From NCBI GenBank assembly GCA_003135555.1, contig PLCF01000015.1, positions 1-48,815 of the forward strand: a DNA stretch of 48,815 nt, in the 5' to 3' direction. This stretch comes from Vulcanimicrobiota bacterium. GTDB taxonomy: Bacteria > Vulcanimicrobiota > Vulcanimicrobiia > Vulcanimicrobiales > Vulcanimicrobiaceae. Made by a program: the position numbers. Shown here in pieces: positions 43,401-48,815 of the stretch (position 1 is the stretch's first letter; every line of letters begins with the position of its first letter).

Positions 43401-46400
43401 GGCGGTGCGGGTGCGCGGCAGCGTCGTCACCGTGATCGTCTGGATCGCGGCGCTCTCGTTGCGCTTGGCGGCGCGGTTCGTGGTGGGCGGAGCCGGCGCC
43501 GATCTGACGACGCAGTACGAGCTCAACGCGGGGTTGCTGGCGCTTCTCGCCGGGGCGTTCATTGTCGTGGCGCTGGGATTCCATCGCGCCATCGACCGGC
43601 TCGCGCCGGATGCTACGGTGGCGCGAACGCTCTAGGCGTAGCCGAGCGCGTCGCCGGACAAGGCGATGTAGAGGTCGAGCAACTCGTCGAAGACCTGCCG
43701 GACGCGCGGGTCCGGGCTACGCCGGGCCATCACGCCGGCGGCACGCACCAGCTCGTCGATCCGCGGCAGCTTCTCGACGACGGGCTCGGGCGACGCGACG
43801 ATCGCGTCCCGTTCCTCGGTGATTCCGACCAGTGTCATGGCTGGATGCTCCTGCTCTTGCGGCACACCGCCGTACCGCTTGTATCGGCAGCCCGCCCGAG
43901 AAGTTTATCGCCCGGTCCGGCGGCCAGCCCGGTCTACGTGCTCAGAATCGCGTCCGCGCTGAGCCGGACGTACAGATCGAGGACCTCGTCGTAGACGTCG
44001 CGGGCGCTCACGGCGACCGATGCGGCCCGGCGTAACAGGGCGTCGGCGCGTTCCAGGCGCTCCGCCGTGGGCCGGCTGGAGGCGGCAATCGCGTCGAGTT
44101 CGTCCGTGATCTGATCGAGGCTCATGGGCGGCCCTCCGTGGTCCACTACTGCCGTATCGGCGCGCAGCCCACGGGATATTACCGCGCGGCCGCGGAGTGC
44201 CGCTCGTCAGGCCGGGGTCGTACCGTCGAAGAAGGGGCGCAGCTCGCCGACGAACGTGTCGGTGTTGTGGATGCTGCGCAGCACCACGATGATGGCGTCA
44301 CGGGGGAAGCCCGACTCCAACGTGACGGTGTAGCCGCAGAAGACGTCGCCGGTGTCGTCCGCGCCCCAGAACAAGAAGTTCTGGTCGCTCAGATACAACA
44401 GCCTGCGCATCAGCCCCGACTGATCTCGTGCCTTGCCGAGGTTGATGTAACCGCCGCGGTAGTGAGGATAGACGCGAAAGCCGATGGTGTTGCTCTTCGT
44501 GACGCTTACGATGACTTCGAGCGAGGCGGCGTTCTTCAAGCCGCTGGTAGCCGAGCCGAAGAAGTTGTACGGGTTCTTCGTGCTTTGCTGGAACGTGATG
44601 TTCACGTCGGACCGAGCACCCGCCGAATTGAGGACTTGGCGGACCTGTTCGCGTGTAGCGTCGCGCTCCGCGTCCTGCGCCTTCGCGGACGACGCGCAGG
44701 TGAGCACGGCAAACACGATCACAGCACAGAATCGTAGCAAGCGCATGGCTGAGTAATATTTAGTCCGACTGCCCGGGTCCTTCAAGCGAGGCGAACCCGG
44801 GCCCGAACACGCTCGTGCGGGGGCCGGGGCACCCCGACGTCGACCGGACGGGCCCGCGTACGGGCCCGCCCGGTTCGTTCGTTCACGCCTTCCGCGCGAA
44901 GTCCGCGATCAGCGCGGGCGTCGCGGCGTCGAAGCCCACGACGTCGAGCATGCCGCCGTCGTTGGGGTCCGCGATGGTGAACCCGTTCGACGTCATGCCG
45001 ACCACGACGAGCTTCGCCGGAATGCCCATCCGCTCGCGGTAGCGCCGCAGCGCCTCGTCCGGGTGGATGGTGCCGGCCCACGTCTCCGAGTCCGTCATGA
45101 TGAGGAACAGGTCGACCGTGAGCCGCCGCTCGAGCGCGTAGAGCATCGGGAGCGCGCAGTCCGTTCCCATGAACGGCAGCGCGGCCGTGCGCTGCACGAC
45201 CGAGTCGACGCTTTCGGCCTTGCCGATCTCGAACGGCACGAAGTCGTCCGCGAACGCCATGACCCGCACCGCCTCCTCGGTGCGCACGTGCGTGAGCGCC
45301 ATCGCCGCCGCGCCGACGCGCGGCGTGATCCCCGGGATACCGGCGATCGTGCCGCTCGACATCGAGCCCGACACGTCGAGCCCGATCAGCGTGCGCGCAC
45401 CGGTCGGCTCGACGTTCTCGAACGCCAGCGCGAACGCCGCGTCGAGCGCGTCGACGACCGCCGGCACCGGCGTCCACGTCGCCGAGCCGCGCACGCCGCG
45501 TCCCGACTTGTAGGTCGTGAGCGCCGCGAGCAGCGCGATCGGGTGGATACGTGCCTTGCGCAGCGCCGTCCGATCCGTGATCCGCGCGATCACCGGTGCG
45601 GTCGCCTCGCCCTTGGGCGTGAGCAGACCGACCCGCGTGAGCGTCGCGAGGTTACGGATCAGGGCCGTCATCGGCAGTCCCGGGAGCAGCGCCTCCCAAA
45701 CACGCGGCTCCTTGAGCCACGCGCTCGGCAGCGCTTCACGCGGGAGCCCGGTCGCGCGCACCAGCTCCGCGCACGTTGCGGCGTCGGCGCCCTCCGACAC
45801 CTTGGCCGTTGCGTGCGCGCGCAGGAGCGACAGCGCCTGGAACTCCTCCGTCGGGACGTCGCCCTTCACGATCCACGCATAGAGCGCGGCGCGCTCGGCG
45901 TCCGCGGCGAGCGGGTGCGCGAGACGGAAGACGTCACGGTGCGTGAAGCCCTCGCGGTTCTGGTACTTGAGCGCCTGGTACGCGAGATCGCGGACCGGCT
46001 TCGCCTCGTACCAGCCACGCAGACCGCGGCGCAGGCCGCGGCCCCAGCCGCGGAACTGCTCGATGAACGAGCAGAACGTGAGCAGGTGCGAGCCCGTGCG
46101 GCACACGCGCTGCAGGCCCTCGCCCAGTGCGAAGCTGCGCGTCGCCTCGTCGCCGAAGCCGGCGCACGCGGCCAGCGCGAAAATCGCCGGCTGCACCTTC
46201 GGCGCGCGACCGCTCTCGGAGAGCTCGATCACGCGTGCGACGACCCGACGGCCGTCCTCGCGAATGGCGTCGACGAGGTTCACCGCGTTCTCCTTGGTGA
46301 GCCGGTCCTCGGTCGCGTAGTACGTACCCGATTCGGCACCGAGAATCAGAAAGCGGTCGACGCGCGCCCAGCGGTCGAGCGGGTAGACGTAGCCGCCGTT

Positions 46401-48815
46401 GTCGGCGCGCACCTGGGCGCGACCCGGCTGCGGCTGCGTCTGCAGCGTGCCCGCGGCGCGGCCGCGGAAGATCCGTGCGAGCATGTTCATGTGGTGTCCC
46501 TCCCTTCGTGCGTGAGATCGAGGTGATGATGAATGCGAGCCGGAGCCCGCGGGCAAGTGATGTTCGAGGGTGGGCTTGCGCCCCGCGCTCTACCACTGAG
46601 CTACGTGCGATGCACGGCGGGAATCGAACCCGCGCCTCTCGTTTAGCAGACGATAACCTCGGACGTTCGGCCCGCAAGCCGAAACCGTGGACGAGCGATT
46701 GTTCGAGGAGTGAGGCTCACCCGTAGCGGACTCGCCCCATGCGCTTTCGCGCGGTCGTGAGGAACGATAACCTCGAACGTCCGGCCCACGGCGGCCGGCT
46801 CATGATTGTGAGGACTCGCAGACGAATGGTGGTGCGGGAGCGGGACGACACCTCGCGTCCCTCGCCGACATTGCGCGGCTTGCGCCGCACGCCGCCTTTT
46901 GGATTCGAACCAGTAGCTTCCAGAGAACCCGCACCGTCCGGCCCGCGAGCCGGGATCAGCCCTTGATGCAGACCACCTGGCGGAGCGTGTGTACGATCCG
47001 TACCAGATCGTGCTGCGCCGCCATGACGTCGTCGATGTCCTTGTACGCGGACGGTGCCTCGTCGAGGACGCCCGCGTCCTTGCGGCATTCGACGCCGTGC
47101 GTCTCGCGCGCGAGATCCTTGAGCGTGAGCGTGCGCATCGCCTCGCCGCGGCTCATCCGGCGGCCGGCGCCGTGCGAGCACGACTCGAACGATTCCGGAT
47201 TGCCGAGACCGCGCACGACGAACGAGCGCGCGCCCATCGAGCCGGGGATGAAGCCGAGCTCGTCGAGGCCGGCGCGGACCGCACCCTTGCGCGTCACGTA
47301 CACGTCGGCACCGAAGTGCCGTTCGCGCGCGACGTAGTTGTGGTGGCAGTTCACGACGGTCTCGGCGCGCGCGAAGCGCGGCAGCTTGACCTTGCCGTCG
47401 CGCAGCGCCTCGAGCGCGTTCTCCATCATGATCTCGCGGTTGGTGCGAGCGTAGTCCTGCGCCCAGCCTACCGCGTCCACGTAGGCGTCGAACGCCGGCG
47501 TGTTCTCGGTGAGGTGGGCGAGGTCGCGATCGGCGATCGTGACGCCGGCGCGCTCGAGCTCCTCGTGCGCGCGCTCGATGTAGAACGAGCCGATGCGATT
47601 GCCCGCGCCGCGCGAGCCCGAGTGCAGGACGAGCCAGACGTCGCCCGCTTCGTCAAGGCAGACCTCGCAGAAGTGGTTGCCGCCGCCCATCGTGCCGAGC
47701 TGCTCGCGCACGTTGCGGGTCGAGACCTTCGGCGCGCGCTCGACCACGCGGTCGTAGCGCTCGCCGAGGTCGGCCTTCCACGCGCGCTCCGCCGCCGGCG
47801 TCGCATCGCGGTGAGCCGCCTTACCGACCGGCACCACGTGCTCGATCGCCTTGCGAATGCCGCGGAGGTCCGTCGGAAGGTCCTCGGCGCGCAGGGTGAG
47901 CTTCTGCGCGATCATGCCGCAGCCGATGTCGACGCCGACCGCGGCCGGAACGATCGCACCGATCGTCGGGATGACGCTGCCCACGGTCGCGCCGCGGCCC
48001 AAGTGGACGTCGGGCATCACCGCGACGTGCGAGTGCACGAACGGCAGCGAGGCCATGTTGGCGACCTGCTTGCGCGCGTTTTCGTCGAACTCGACGCCGT
48101 CGACCCACGCCTTGATCGGGTGGCCGGCGTTCTCGATCACTTCCACGGTGATGCCCTCCTTTCGGAAAAATAAGAAGCGGGGTGAGCGCATCGCTCACCC
48201 CGCCTTCGGCGTTCGTGGTTTGCGCTCGAGTGTTAGGTTCGGCTCGCCCCGATCGGCGTGCACGCCGTCAGCGGCTTCCGCGAGGCGGAGCCGTGATTTC
48301 GATCGAGGCCGGAGACGTACGATGGTGTTTGCATGATGAACTCGGGAAGAAGCGTACGCGACGATTGCGACCTTTGTCAAGGTGTCGGCGCGCGTTTTTC
48401 GACTGGCGTCGATTGTGGAGATCGAAAAAGATTTTATGAGAACCGCTTGACAAGCAGCTAGACTTCGCTCTAGGATCGGTCCGTTATGATGCAACGATCC
48501 GCATCGGCCCGCCCATCATCCAAAGGCCACTCGCTATGGTCTTTAGATTCGTATTGCCTTAGCGCGAATACGTTTGGGCGAGTCGCGGCGAAGCCGGAAG
48601 GCATCGTCGTATCGTAGCTGTCGCACCGGAGCTCTTGTAGGTTTACGAGGGGATCGGCGCACAGCCGGTCCCCTCGGTCGTTTCCTGGGTCCGTGTCGTG
48701 GCGACGGGCGCGATTCCAACCCGCGCAGTGGGCGTTCGACTCGTCCCGGACCCGCATGGTGGTCGAGGCCGAAGCATTCGAGGCGCTCGCCCGTGACGCG
48801 AGCCGAAGTGGGTGA

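Follow-up and report, generated by a model that had tools for sequence, protein, structure and literature searches.

Organization of the locus

The window analysed here is a stretch of 48,815 nucleotides at the start of contig PLCF01000015.1 of a Vulcanimicrobiota bacterium from soil (assembly GCA_003135555.1). The source genome is 84% complete, and the contig that carries the tRNA array is cut by its end and interrupted by a run of N at 48816-48909. ARAGORN was run on the entire contig, the window was scanned with Rfam at E ≤ 1, and the proteins were compared with Pfam. Near the right end of the window, a unit made of a promoter, a leader, a putative switch and tRNA genes lies divergent from an rtcB - Y-RNA-like - Ro60 operon.

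The repair genes are on the reverse strand. The Ro60 (Rsr) gene at 44883-46556 matches the Pfam families vWA_Ro60 (1.1e-62) and TROVE (2.5e-38). Its open frame extends to 46556, and its likely start, as read from the sequence, is the ATG at 46490, which has a GGGAGGG box ahead of it. The Y-RNA-like element at 46587-46672 contains a tRNA-like module: its Rfam YrlA match (46587-46634) scores 37.3 bits, under the cut-off of 69, and an Rfam tRNA match of 28.9 bits lies inside the element at 46617-46672. A 24-nt motif of this element can be read again at 46766-46789. The rtcB RNA ligase gene is found at 46956-48146 (Pfam RtcB, 5e-122). Its open frame reaches 48191, and GTG 48146 is the real start, with a GGAGG box at 48155-48159; read from this codon, RtcB is 396 residues long and aligns with a relative's RtcB across residues 1-396. 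An alignment of the upstream regions was also used for this assignment. The three neighbours named in the first-pass annotation are thus borne out by Pfam and Rfam matches, that of the YrlA-like element being below the cut-off.

On the forward strand, the control elements of the array occupy 48447-48685 and consist of a promoter, a structured leader of about 200 nt and a putative antiterminator/terminator pair, followed by an aberrant tRNA-like element. This is the layout that had been described earlier for the side divergent from the repair operon. The aberrant element at 48687-48755 was called by ARAGORN as a tRNA-Trp (CCA) of 69 nt, had no match to the Rfam tRNA model at E ≤ 1 in the window, and opens the array in many relatives too. 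The remainder of the array begins at 48756-48815 on the same strand, and ARAGORN places 15 further tRNA genes at contig positions 48930-50222, past the window and the N run. Hence, the contig contains 16 tRNA genes, the aberrant first one included, and not the 17 counted previously.

L-arrays are defined as at least 20 tRNA genes that are packed closely and come on top of the housekeeping set, according to the part of the source consulted (PMC8421152). In relatives, the long loci have 21-28 tRNA genes in six of seven cases and 15 in the seventh; the cut contig itself has 16. The array is extra to a housekeeping set, 39 tRNA genes being found elsewhere in the genome with Pro(CGG) and Trp among them, and its distribution in relatives is patchy. 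Of the five good genomes that lack the leader, four have no RtcB and show 45-51 tRNA matches. The arrays contain gaps of 150-900 nt. In RNA runs, contigs fell only on the array part of a relative's locus and none on the leader.

Promoter, distribution and fold of the array leader

The array promoter at 48447-48476 (forward strand) reads TTGACA-18-TAGGAT with an A-rich stretch upstream and is conserved in the alignments. With 10 of 12 matches, it was the top promoter-like site within 20 kb in a scan. We collected 35 versions of the leader from Ca. Elarobacter and its relatives (Eremiobacterota): 29 distinct ones of a main class, which are kin, so that counts made on them are not independent, and six divergent ones (L103-L106, L112 and L117). 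A covariance model located the leader in 21 of the 44 genomes of the genus, in one of which it is cut by a contig end, and matched the hairpin only in one further genome. The leader is not restricted to long arrays, which corrects the first-pass annotation: in three genomes it precedes one or two tRNA genes (tRNA-Pro CGG), and in one genome an XRE regulator gene.

The covariation reported earlier for the leader was reproduced on the 29 distinct sequences. Its 33 pairs are formed in 95.9% of the cells, compared to 34-45% when the partners are slid; 11 pairs are changed on both sides, and none of 500 shuffles scored as high. Two hairpins lie within the open frame described below, P2 at 48522-48544 (7 pairs, 5 with changes on both sides) and P3 at 48554-48581 (11 pairs, 5 with changes on both sides). 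A third, P4 at 48585-48610, has a GGAA loop in the window; it was derived from single-sequence folds of the 29 leaders, and its form differs by clade. As noted before, the leader matches no Rfam family: at E ≤ 1 the window gave only the YrlA-like and tRNA matches and no T-box or other cis-regulatory family, and in seven relatives at E ≤ 0.05 significant scores were obtained solely for the tRNA clan, with no family for any leader.

Two mutually exclusive helices follow the open frame. The predicted antiterminator at 48619-48663 takes in the 5' arm of the terminator together with its loop and has a truncated-fold energy of -18.9 kcal/mol in the window (-17 to -24 kcal/mol in the array leaders). 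Its 14 pairs are formed in 91.4% of the cells, compared to 27-57% when slid, and three of them show compensatory changes. The putative terminator hairpin at 48646-48685 has 13 bp, a GCACA loop and a weak tail, GUCGUUUCC. Its 13 pairs are formed in 98.6% of the cells, three with compensatory changes, and all 32 sequences examined retain the GC-rich stem. The U-run, previously held to be invariant, is not: a run of at least three T was found in 29 of 33 leaders and two or fewer in the other four, and the tail in the window is a mere TTT, which fails a simple terminator scan. In the six divergent leaders both helices, which share one strand, are kept by two-sided changes. The antiterminator pairs had earlier been described as almost invariant; these versions show compensatory changes in antiterminator and terminator alike.

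An open frame with all 20 amino acids

The leader contains an open frame at 48486-48617 with 43 codons and a TAG stop, whose ATG is 9 nt past the -10 box and which has no Shine-Dalgarno box. An in-frame ATG is located 9-10 nt past the -10 box in all 29 main-class leaders and 6-10 nt past it in all six divergent ones. The frame was said to have 42-46 codons at every locus, and we find it open in 29/29 main-class leaders with 43-46 codons; over all leaders, including those of rtcB, the range is 32-48 codons. Where the first ATG is lost in the alignments, the second is kept, and vice versa. The stop (TAG, TGA or TAA) stays at one place, and the antiterminator begins 1-4 nt past it in the array leader and 0-9 nt past it across the array and rtcB leaders, a placement that, on geometry only, would let the ribosome choose between the helices.

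Openness alone is weak evidence, because 24 of 29 leaders are open in frame +2 as well, and so are 26% of shuffles. All seven indel blocks of at least 3 nt inside the array and rtcB frames are multiples of three, and one -1/+1 pair of indels compensates within the frames. Stops occur in none of the 29 sequences in frame 0, compared to five in frame +2, despite 16.5 one-step paths to a stop in frame 0 against 9.8 in frame +2. The frame shows no codon periodicity (column entropy 0.75/0.79/0.68 over codon positions 1, 2 and 3), so that the sequence of the peptide is not itself conserved; even substitutions over codon positions had been counted earlier.

Within 43-46 residues, the full set of 20 amino acids occurs in 18 of the 29 main-class peptides, the window's among them, and 19 amino acids occur in another seven; of the divergent peptides, L112 is complete and L117 lacks one. 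Shuffled sequences that were kept open had about 16 amino acids on average, with a probability of 0.001-0.015 of reaching at least 20, and windows of real proteins used as a control for full coverage gave P = 0.0009. The two other reading frames of the leader encode 12-18 amino acids. Trp is found at either of two sites, depending on the clade. Coverage was not significant in three leaders that precede tRNA-Pro alone (15-18 amino acids) or in the rtcB leaders (14-18 amino acids in 33 residues). The array-leader frames contain no run of regulatory codons of the kind that senses a single amino acid.

A mirror-image leader in front of rtcB

On the reverse strand, the rtcB operon has a candidate leader of its own. 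Its promoter at 48351-48381 has a -35 box TTGACA (48376-48381) and a -10 box TACGCT (48351-48356), and the pattern TTGACA-N17-TA..CT is conserved in 14 of the 19 loci inspected. An open frame at 48233-48334 follows, with 33 codons and a TAA stop; it has 32-34 codons in 21 of 21 sequences, and all four indel blocks inside it are multiples of three. Between its stop and the terminator, 48206-48232 would supply the 5' strand region of an antiterminator: with folding stopped short of the terminator's 3' arm, all 14 sequences folded gave an alternative helix (-12 to -23 kcal/mol). The terminator scan found a hairpin at 48175-48205, which consists of a 14-bp stem and the tail CTTATTTTTC and lies immediately upstream of the ribosome-binding site of rtcB. 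It is canonical, and 13 of its pairs are kept in 21 sequences. This putative mirror-image leader, with promoter, 33-codon frame, antiterminator and terminator on the other strand, is new here. The link between array and repair operon that was proposed before thereby gains a physical basis, namely the separate frame, antiterminator and terminator of rtcB.

A proposed ribosome-sensing attenuator and its alternatives

What is observed are the elements in the sequence, how they are conserved and that both helices covary; from this we infer that the frame would be translated, that transcription would terminate, and in which direction the array would respond. A cis-acting premature-termination switch, as the first-pass annotation had suggested, is now better supported than before, as both helices are kept via compensatory changes. 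Of the two sensors then considered, the ribosome is favoured over a riboswitch because the frame survives indels, its stop lies at the foot of the antiterminator and the peptide covers all 20 amino acids. We lean towards the array leader being a ribosome-sensing transcription attenuator. The strong array promoter would fire constitutively, and the transcript would begin very close to the ATG of a test frame that has 43 codons and covers all 20 amino acids. The antiterminator, right after the stop codon, would take the 5' arm of the GC-rich terminator, which is placed 10 nt ahead of the first tRNA-like element. A ribosome that arrives at the end of the frame with RNA polymerase still on the leader would cover the antiterminator foot, and the terminator would then form and keep the spare tRNA genes off. 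With ribosomes that are slow or absent, or that stall at whichever codon, the antiterminator would form first and transcription would enter the array. The rtcB - Y RNA - Ro60 operon would have a separate leader of like design, and therefore both units would open together.

The same switch could be set by the folded leader RNA, which would sense a small molecule, a tRNA or a protein in the manner of a riboswitch, with the frame being incidental. P2 and P3 covary strongly, P4 has GNRA loops, and a possible helix of 10-17 bp would connect the region of the start codon with the end of the frame, the closed multi-branch fold having z = -3.5, although this long-range helix shows one covariation event only. 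The three covarying hairpins, of which one has a GNRA loop, and this possible helix do resemble a folded sensor RNA and count against a ribosome sensor, as do the weak U-tail, the lack of codon periodicity and the lack of a Shine-Dalgarno box. Moreover, conservation extends to every codon position in the first 25 nt and in the P2-P3 junction, and a conserved UUCGU motif falls in different frames in two classes. However, a folded sensor leaves the kept ATG and stop, the multiples-of-three indels and the all-20 coverage unexplained, and the Rfam scans of the window and the seven relatives returned no family for any leader. Furthermore, genome G031 lacks P3 yet keeps frame and switch, and in the divergent leaders the part that would be the sensor is very different while the frame is kept. 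We consider such a sensor rather unlikely. The RtcR domain (PF06956) was not found in this genome, 84% complete; together with the published precedent of an attenuated RtcB-like gene described below, this counts in favour of ribosome sensing.

Two further explanations can be given. The stretch from the strong promoter to the strong hairpin is a complete small unit, which precedes varied cargo (arrays, one or two tRNAs, an XRE gene), and it could be a stand-alone gene for an sRNA or a protein of about 43 residues, with the array made by constitutive leak-through or from internal promoters, which the 150-900-nt gaps could house. Published abstracts describe attenuator RNAs able to act in trans in other bacteria. 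Yet the first tRNA-like element could be read only from the leader promoter, because no more than 10-14 nt lie between it and the hairpin tail. A plain terminator would have no use for a conserved alternative helix by which it is abolished, and the peptide sequence is not conserved, which makes a stand-alone gene improbable in our estimate. It is also conceivable that the hairpin is not a terminator and serves as a protein-binding or processing signal (an RNase site, a 5' stabiliser) or as a DNA operator for a repressor, cf. TrcR in Anabaena. Its 28 nt, loop included, are invariant in the set found by blastn, the rest of the leader being about 75% identical, and the U-tail is poor in the window, L002, L011, L105, L106 and L117. 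Against this, distant versions alter the stem with compensation, like RNA helices, the stem is identical to ordinary gene-end terminators in other phyla, and two alternative partners can account for its invariance. The 18-nt TrcR motif, as given in the consulted part of PMC10272220, had no match in the window at up to three mismatches, the search being for the motif and not for a TrcR protein homologue. This explanation appears very improbable.

Returning to the ribosome-sensing attenuator, a bolder version can be offered tentatively, with odds somewhat short of even. The leaderless test peptide with all 20 amino acids would act as a translation speedometer that RNA polymerase outruns when any tRNA is scarce or cut, and two back-to-back attenuators would then open a complete spare tRNA set together with RtcB - Y RNA - Ro60; among known attenuators, this would be the first to respond to decoding overall instead of to a single amino acid. 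An all-20 frame predicts that starvation for any single amino acid, or the cutting of any tRNA, opens the switch. If true, paired leader-frame attenuators would couple array and repair operon to the state of the ribosome without a protein sensor and would represent a compact genetic part reporting translation speed.

Comparison with known systems

Amino-acid operons are controlled by leader-peptide attenuators such as trpL, hisL, pheL, leuL, thrL and ilvL. The array leader resembles these in its short frame, its predicted strand-sharing antiterminator and terminator, and a stop placed where a ribosome that has read the whole frame would favour the terminator. Unlike them, it lacks a codon run for a single amino acid and spells all 20; its frame has 43 codons with three covarying hairpins; its start is of the leaderless type, with no Shine-Dalgarno box; and its cargo is tRNA genes, not enzymes. 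A region 1:2 anti-antiterminator was not found in the array leader. T-box leaders also use an antiterminator/terminator switch, which reports tRNA status, but no Rfam match was obtained here and no specifier or T-box sequence was seen.

In enterobacteria, RtcR and sigma-54 control rtcBA and rsr-yrlBA-rtcBA. There, as would be the case here, RtcB, Ro60 and Y RNA repair genes are induced by damage to the translation apparatus, whereas the control here would lie in RNA leaders with terminators, PF06956 not having been found in this 84% complete genome.

We found no leader-peptide attenuator of tRNA arrays in print; an RtcB-like gene already has a published one, which narrows the novelty claimed initially. 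According to the part of a review consulted (PMC12057347), the leader peptide PA5471.1 precedes armZ (PA5471), which encodes an RtcB-like RNA ligase in Pseudomonas aeruginosa, and ribosomes stalled by translation inhibitors are proposed to change the fold of the mRNA so that transcription reaches armZ; the review itself states that the mechanism awaits confirmation. On this description, a leader peptide with downstream terminators before an RtcB-like gene would be common to both systems. The likeness is one of description, the phylum is another one, the armZ product is an anti-repressor of an efflux operon, and that account has no tRNA array, Ro60/Y RNA or divergent twin.

Control of long tRNA arrays is known only in cyanobacteria, where it is exerted by a protein repressor. 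The trn array of Anabaena PCC 7120 is likewise a supernumerary long array. In the parts of the two sources consulted (PMC8421152; PMC10272220), it is described as off by default, induced by translational stress and co-regulated with rtcB, which is enriched near long tRNA arrays. It differs in its protein repressor, TrcR, a ribbon-helix-helix protein whose binding sites are AT-rich repeats that span the -10 box and the start site (same sources). The words leader, terminator, attenuat and riboswitch are not used in PMC8421152. Finally, leaderless short-frame attenuators that are Cys-rich and sense one amino acid have been described in mycobacteria, as far as the consulted part of the preprint shows (bioRxiv 10.1101/834739). 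They share with the array leader a leaderless short frame that stands first in the operon as a sensor, and differ from it in mechanism, in cargo and in being confined to a single amino acid.

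Organization of the locus

The contig is 50,280 nt long, with the window covering its first 48,815 nt, and belongs to a genome of 3.57 Mb with 68% GC. On the minus strand, Ro60 (with its TROVE and vWA_Ro60 domains) is separated from rtcB by a 400-nt spacer containing a YrlA-like match of 37.3 bits (cut-off 69) and an overlapping tRNA-like match. A 24-nt motif occurs twice in this spacer, at 46652-46675 and 46766-46789, with an Rfam match for only one of the two; judging by this duplication, the spacer may hold two Y-RNA-like units. The RtcB gene, also on the minus strand, lies between the spacer and the divergent array leader. 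The array promoter, TTGACA-18-TAGGAT at 48447-48476 on the plus strand, was the top promoter-like site in a scan of the last 20 kb. It is followed, on the same strand, by the array leader of about 200 nt, by an aberrant first element of 69 nt, called a tRNA-Trp by ARAGORN but undetected by the Rfam tRNA model, and by 15 further ARAGORN tRNA genes extending to contig position 50222. The leader and array beside rtcB-Ro60 described in the first-pass annotation are confirmed. A run of 94 N at contig positions 48816-48909 breaks the array just past the first tRNA-like element and possibly hides one or two tRNA genes; in many relatives, a His gene is located there.

Two mutually exclusive helices in the array leader

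A blastn search located the array leader in 15 of the 36 genus genomes first sampled, and a covariance model (R1) located it in 21 of 44, with one additional hairpin-only match. Scanning GTDB and metagenome contigs for the pattern gave extra copies. An alignment of the 29 distinct array-linked leaders of the main class (A1) gave an RNAalifold consensus of 33 pairs, distributed over hairpins P2 and P3, a 3-bp mini-helix and a 12-bp terminator. At these positions 95.9% of the cells are paired, compared with 34-45% when the partners are slid, and 11 pairs show changes on both sides. None of 500 shuffles attained such pairing and covariation values, so that the covariation figures reported earlier for the leader are reproduced on these 29 sequences. 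Single-sequence folds show a third hairpin, P4, which frequently has a GNRA loop and whose position shifts among clades. It competes with a possible long-range helix between the start-codon region and the last codons of the frame, in which 76% of the cells pair and one covariation event is found. No Rfam family matches any of the leaders.

The antiterminator (48619-48663) and the terminator (48646-48685) could be compared more stringently once divergent versions of the leader were included. In these, the sequence 5' of the GGGG core is different, and the partner strands of the antiterminator and of the terminator have both changed to match. In the resulting alignment of 32 main-class and divergent sequences (A2), the antiterminator comprises 14 pairs, 91.4% paired against 27-57% for slid partners, and the terminator 13 pairs, 98.6% paired against 33-55%. 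Each has three pairs with compensatory changes, which strengthens an antiterminator that had previously shown only one covarying pair. When sequences are truncated before the 3' arm of the terminator, nearly all of them fold into the antiterminator (-17 to -24 kcal/mol). Because compensatory changes are present in both helices and the truncated folds agree, both of the mutually exclusive helices are genuine features of the RNA. The U-run turned out to be less constant than was first stated: at least three T in a row are found in only 29 of 33 leaders, the window having three, while L002, L011, L105 and L106 have at most two and L117 is poor as well.

The bases that follow the stop codon can pair with the terminator loop, neatly so in several clades; taken over all sequences, this pairing is weak (-8.7 kcal/mol for native and -7.4 kcal/mol for swapped combinations) and was not retained.

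A scan for the exact 14-nt hairpin arm with its partner gave 37 loci, Eremiobacterota included (L022-L058). Outside Eremiobacterota, the stem mostly belongs to gene-end terminators with different loops (in Rhodobacteraceae, Gemmatimonas, Sphingomonas, Planctomycetota, Bifidobacterium and others). We rejected it as an element common to other phyla in favor of chance recurrence, which on a rough estimate accounts for a GC-rich 14-nt arm in the terminator repertoire of 185,000 genomes.

The open frame and its possible translation

The array leader contains an open frame at 48486-48617 (frame 0), and several observations argue against its translation. Column entropy is 0.75, 0.79 and 0.68 at codon positions 1, 2 and 3, with no codon periodicity, and the frame accommodates three structured hairpins as well as the possible start-to-end helix. 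Openness by itself is non-discriminating, since 24 of the 29 leaders are open in frame +2 too and 26% of composition-matched shuffles are open.

On the other side, an in-frame ATG is positioned 9-10 nt past the -10 box in all 29 main-class leaders and 6-10 nt past it in the six divergent ones, and clades that have lost one ATG of an ATGATG pair retain the other. TAG, TGA and TAA all serve as the stop codon, always at a single position of the alignment, except that in two sequences a single-base indel shifts the frame, which then terminates at a TGA located 4 nt downstream. Within the array and rtcB leader frames, each of the seven indel blocks of at least 3 nt has a length divisible by three, and one clade carries a compensating -1/+1 pair. 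Frame 0 has acquired no stops, whereas frame +2 has acquired them in five of the 29 leaders at five different places, even though more one-step routes to a stop exist in frame 0.

The amino-acid content of the putative peptide also favors translation. In 18 of the 29 main-class peptides, all 20 amino acids occur within 43-46 residues; seven others have 19, two have 18 and two have 17. The quite different peptide of L112 also has all 20, and that of L117 has 19. By comparison, shuffles kept open average about 16 distinct amino acids (P of reaching 20, 0.001-0.015), the average is 14.4 for windows taken from long frames of the genome (P = 0.0009), and the other two frames of the leaders contain 12-18. 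Since the main-class sequences are closely related, they cannot be counted as independent, and the number of independent cases is small: the main class, L112 and L117. The Trp codon is found near position 18 in some clades and near 32 in others, and Cys and His are swapped between two clades; the composition of the peptide is kept as its sequence drifts. No enrichment is seen in leaders that precede tRNA-Pro only (15-18 amino acids) or an XRE gene (15 in 32 residues).

The idea that the frame is written in the array's own codons found no support when the window's leader and array were compared by eye. The Ser codons of the leader are mostly TCN and its Leu codons mostly CTA, TTA and CTT, and the array tRNAs are Ser(GCU) and Leu(CAG, CAA, GAG).

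A second leader ahead of rtcB

The minus strand carries a leader of similar layout in front of rtcB. The intergenic alignment places its promoter, TTGACA-N17-TACGCT, at 48381-48351 and its 33-codon frame between an ATG at 48334 and a TAA at 48235-48233. A terminator follows at 48205-48175, identified by a simple scan as a canonical hairpin of 14 bp and then CTTATTTTTC, directly ahead of a GGAGG box and the GTG start of rtcB (48146). The frame has 32-34 codons in all 21 distinct sequences, all four of its indel blocks are multiples of three, and one covarying hairpin lies within it. In 14 of 14 truncated folds an antiterminator forms on the 5' arm of the terminator. According to blastn, this leader is present in 20 of 44 genus genomes, largely those with the array leader. 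Homology of the two leaders was considered and rejected: the array-leader covariance model finds a single place in the genome, which is not the rtcB leader. The likeness is therefore one of design and is not detectable in sequence.

Divergent leaders and their cargo

The covariance model gave weaker full-length matches to L103-L106 and L112. In L104, L105 and L106 (genomes G065, G024 and G011), rtcB and the divergent promoter and leader are followed by only one or two tRNA genes and then by an unrelated alpha/beta hydrolase. The tRNA is tRNA-Pro(CGG), with a second one in L104; the rtcB leader is absent from L105 and L106. L103 (positions 1406-2000 of L016, genome G031) has a shortened leader without P3 and with a 32-codon frame. 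Here rtcB is still divergent, and the cargo is a gene for a 77-aa XRE-type helix-turn-helix protein, with no tRNA. L112, from another genus of the family, has its leader ahead of a tRNA array. L117 (G028:C11, 4652-6797 and 8509-9738) represents a third class of leader, which escaped the model and precedes a 15-gene array. As rtcB is convergent about 1.7 kb downstream of that array, the link to rtcB is kept in another arrangement.

Proposed mechanism and known systems

The first-pass annotation interpreted the array leader as a new cis-acting attenuator, either riboswitch-like or ribosome-sensing. The attenuator reading is strengthened, and the frame tilts the choice towards the ribosome. The sequence elements and the two helices are established, and translation of the frame, termination and the direction of the response are part of the inferred model. 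In it, a strong constitutive promoter transcribes the leader. The antiterminator begins 0-9 nt past the stop codon, and therefore a ribosome arriving at the frame end in time would cover its foot, the terminator would form, and the cargo would stay off. If ribosomes were slow, stalled at any of 20 codon kinds or absent, the antiterminator would win and transcription would proceed into the array. The same event on the other strand would open the repair operon. RtcR was not found in this genome (84% complete), and the TrcR motif is absent from the window.

The proposed mechanism fits the situation in Anabaena, where translational stress jointly induces an array and rtcB; in that organism a protein repressor exerts the control (PMC8421152, PMC10272220). 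None of the words leader, terminator, attenuat and riboswitch appears in the main text of PMC8421152. The array leader shares its logic with classical leader-peptide attenuation, but differs in its all-amino-acid frame, the length and internal hairpins of that frame, its leaderless-type start, tRNA cargo and back-to-back pairing. In Pseudomonas aeruginosa, the PA5471.1 leader peptide is proposed to attenuate an RtcB-like gene upon ribosome stalling (review PMC12057347). Full-text searches of published papers, covering their main texts, yielded no attenuators before tRNA arrays or rtcB-Ro60 loci and nothing on tRNA arrays of Eremiobacterota.

The tRNA array

Outside the array the genome has 39 tRNA genes, its own Pro(CGG) and Trp among them, and the array is hence a spare set. 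Of five good genomes that have neither leader, four are also devoid of RtcB, with 45-51 tRNA matches, which makes the whole island accessory. Among four RNA runs compared with the locus of a relative, one soil metatranscriptome has contigs (not reads) that match parts of the array at 90-96% identity, and none match the leader or rtcB.

One array tRNA, at C83 49917-49991, has the anticodon CUA and is labeled 'tRNA-Pyl' by ARAGORN. As it has a regular cloverleaf with a 7-bp acceptor stem, it could be an amber suppressor. Among the relatives' arrays that were listed, none showed a CUA anticodon. The stop codon of the window's leader frame is TAG. ARAGORN also reports tRNA-like genes whose anticodon has four bases: gtaa in the array of a relative (L005 2063-2150) and ttag on another contig of the present genome.

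Same-strand protein genes occur within and at the end of relatives' arrays: DUF6847 (152 aa) in three loci, HNH endonucleases, and a single weak match of LAGLIDADG type. They are located at L079 8487-9086 and 9749-10336, L081 8552-9082 and L084 8796-9278, and on the minus strand at L080 9902-10357 and 8271-8831, L083 9767-10222 and L085 8916-9371. Their presence agrees with a mobile origin of the arrays.
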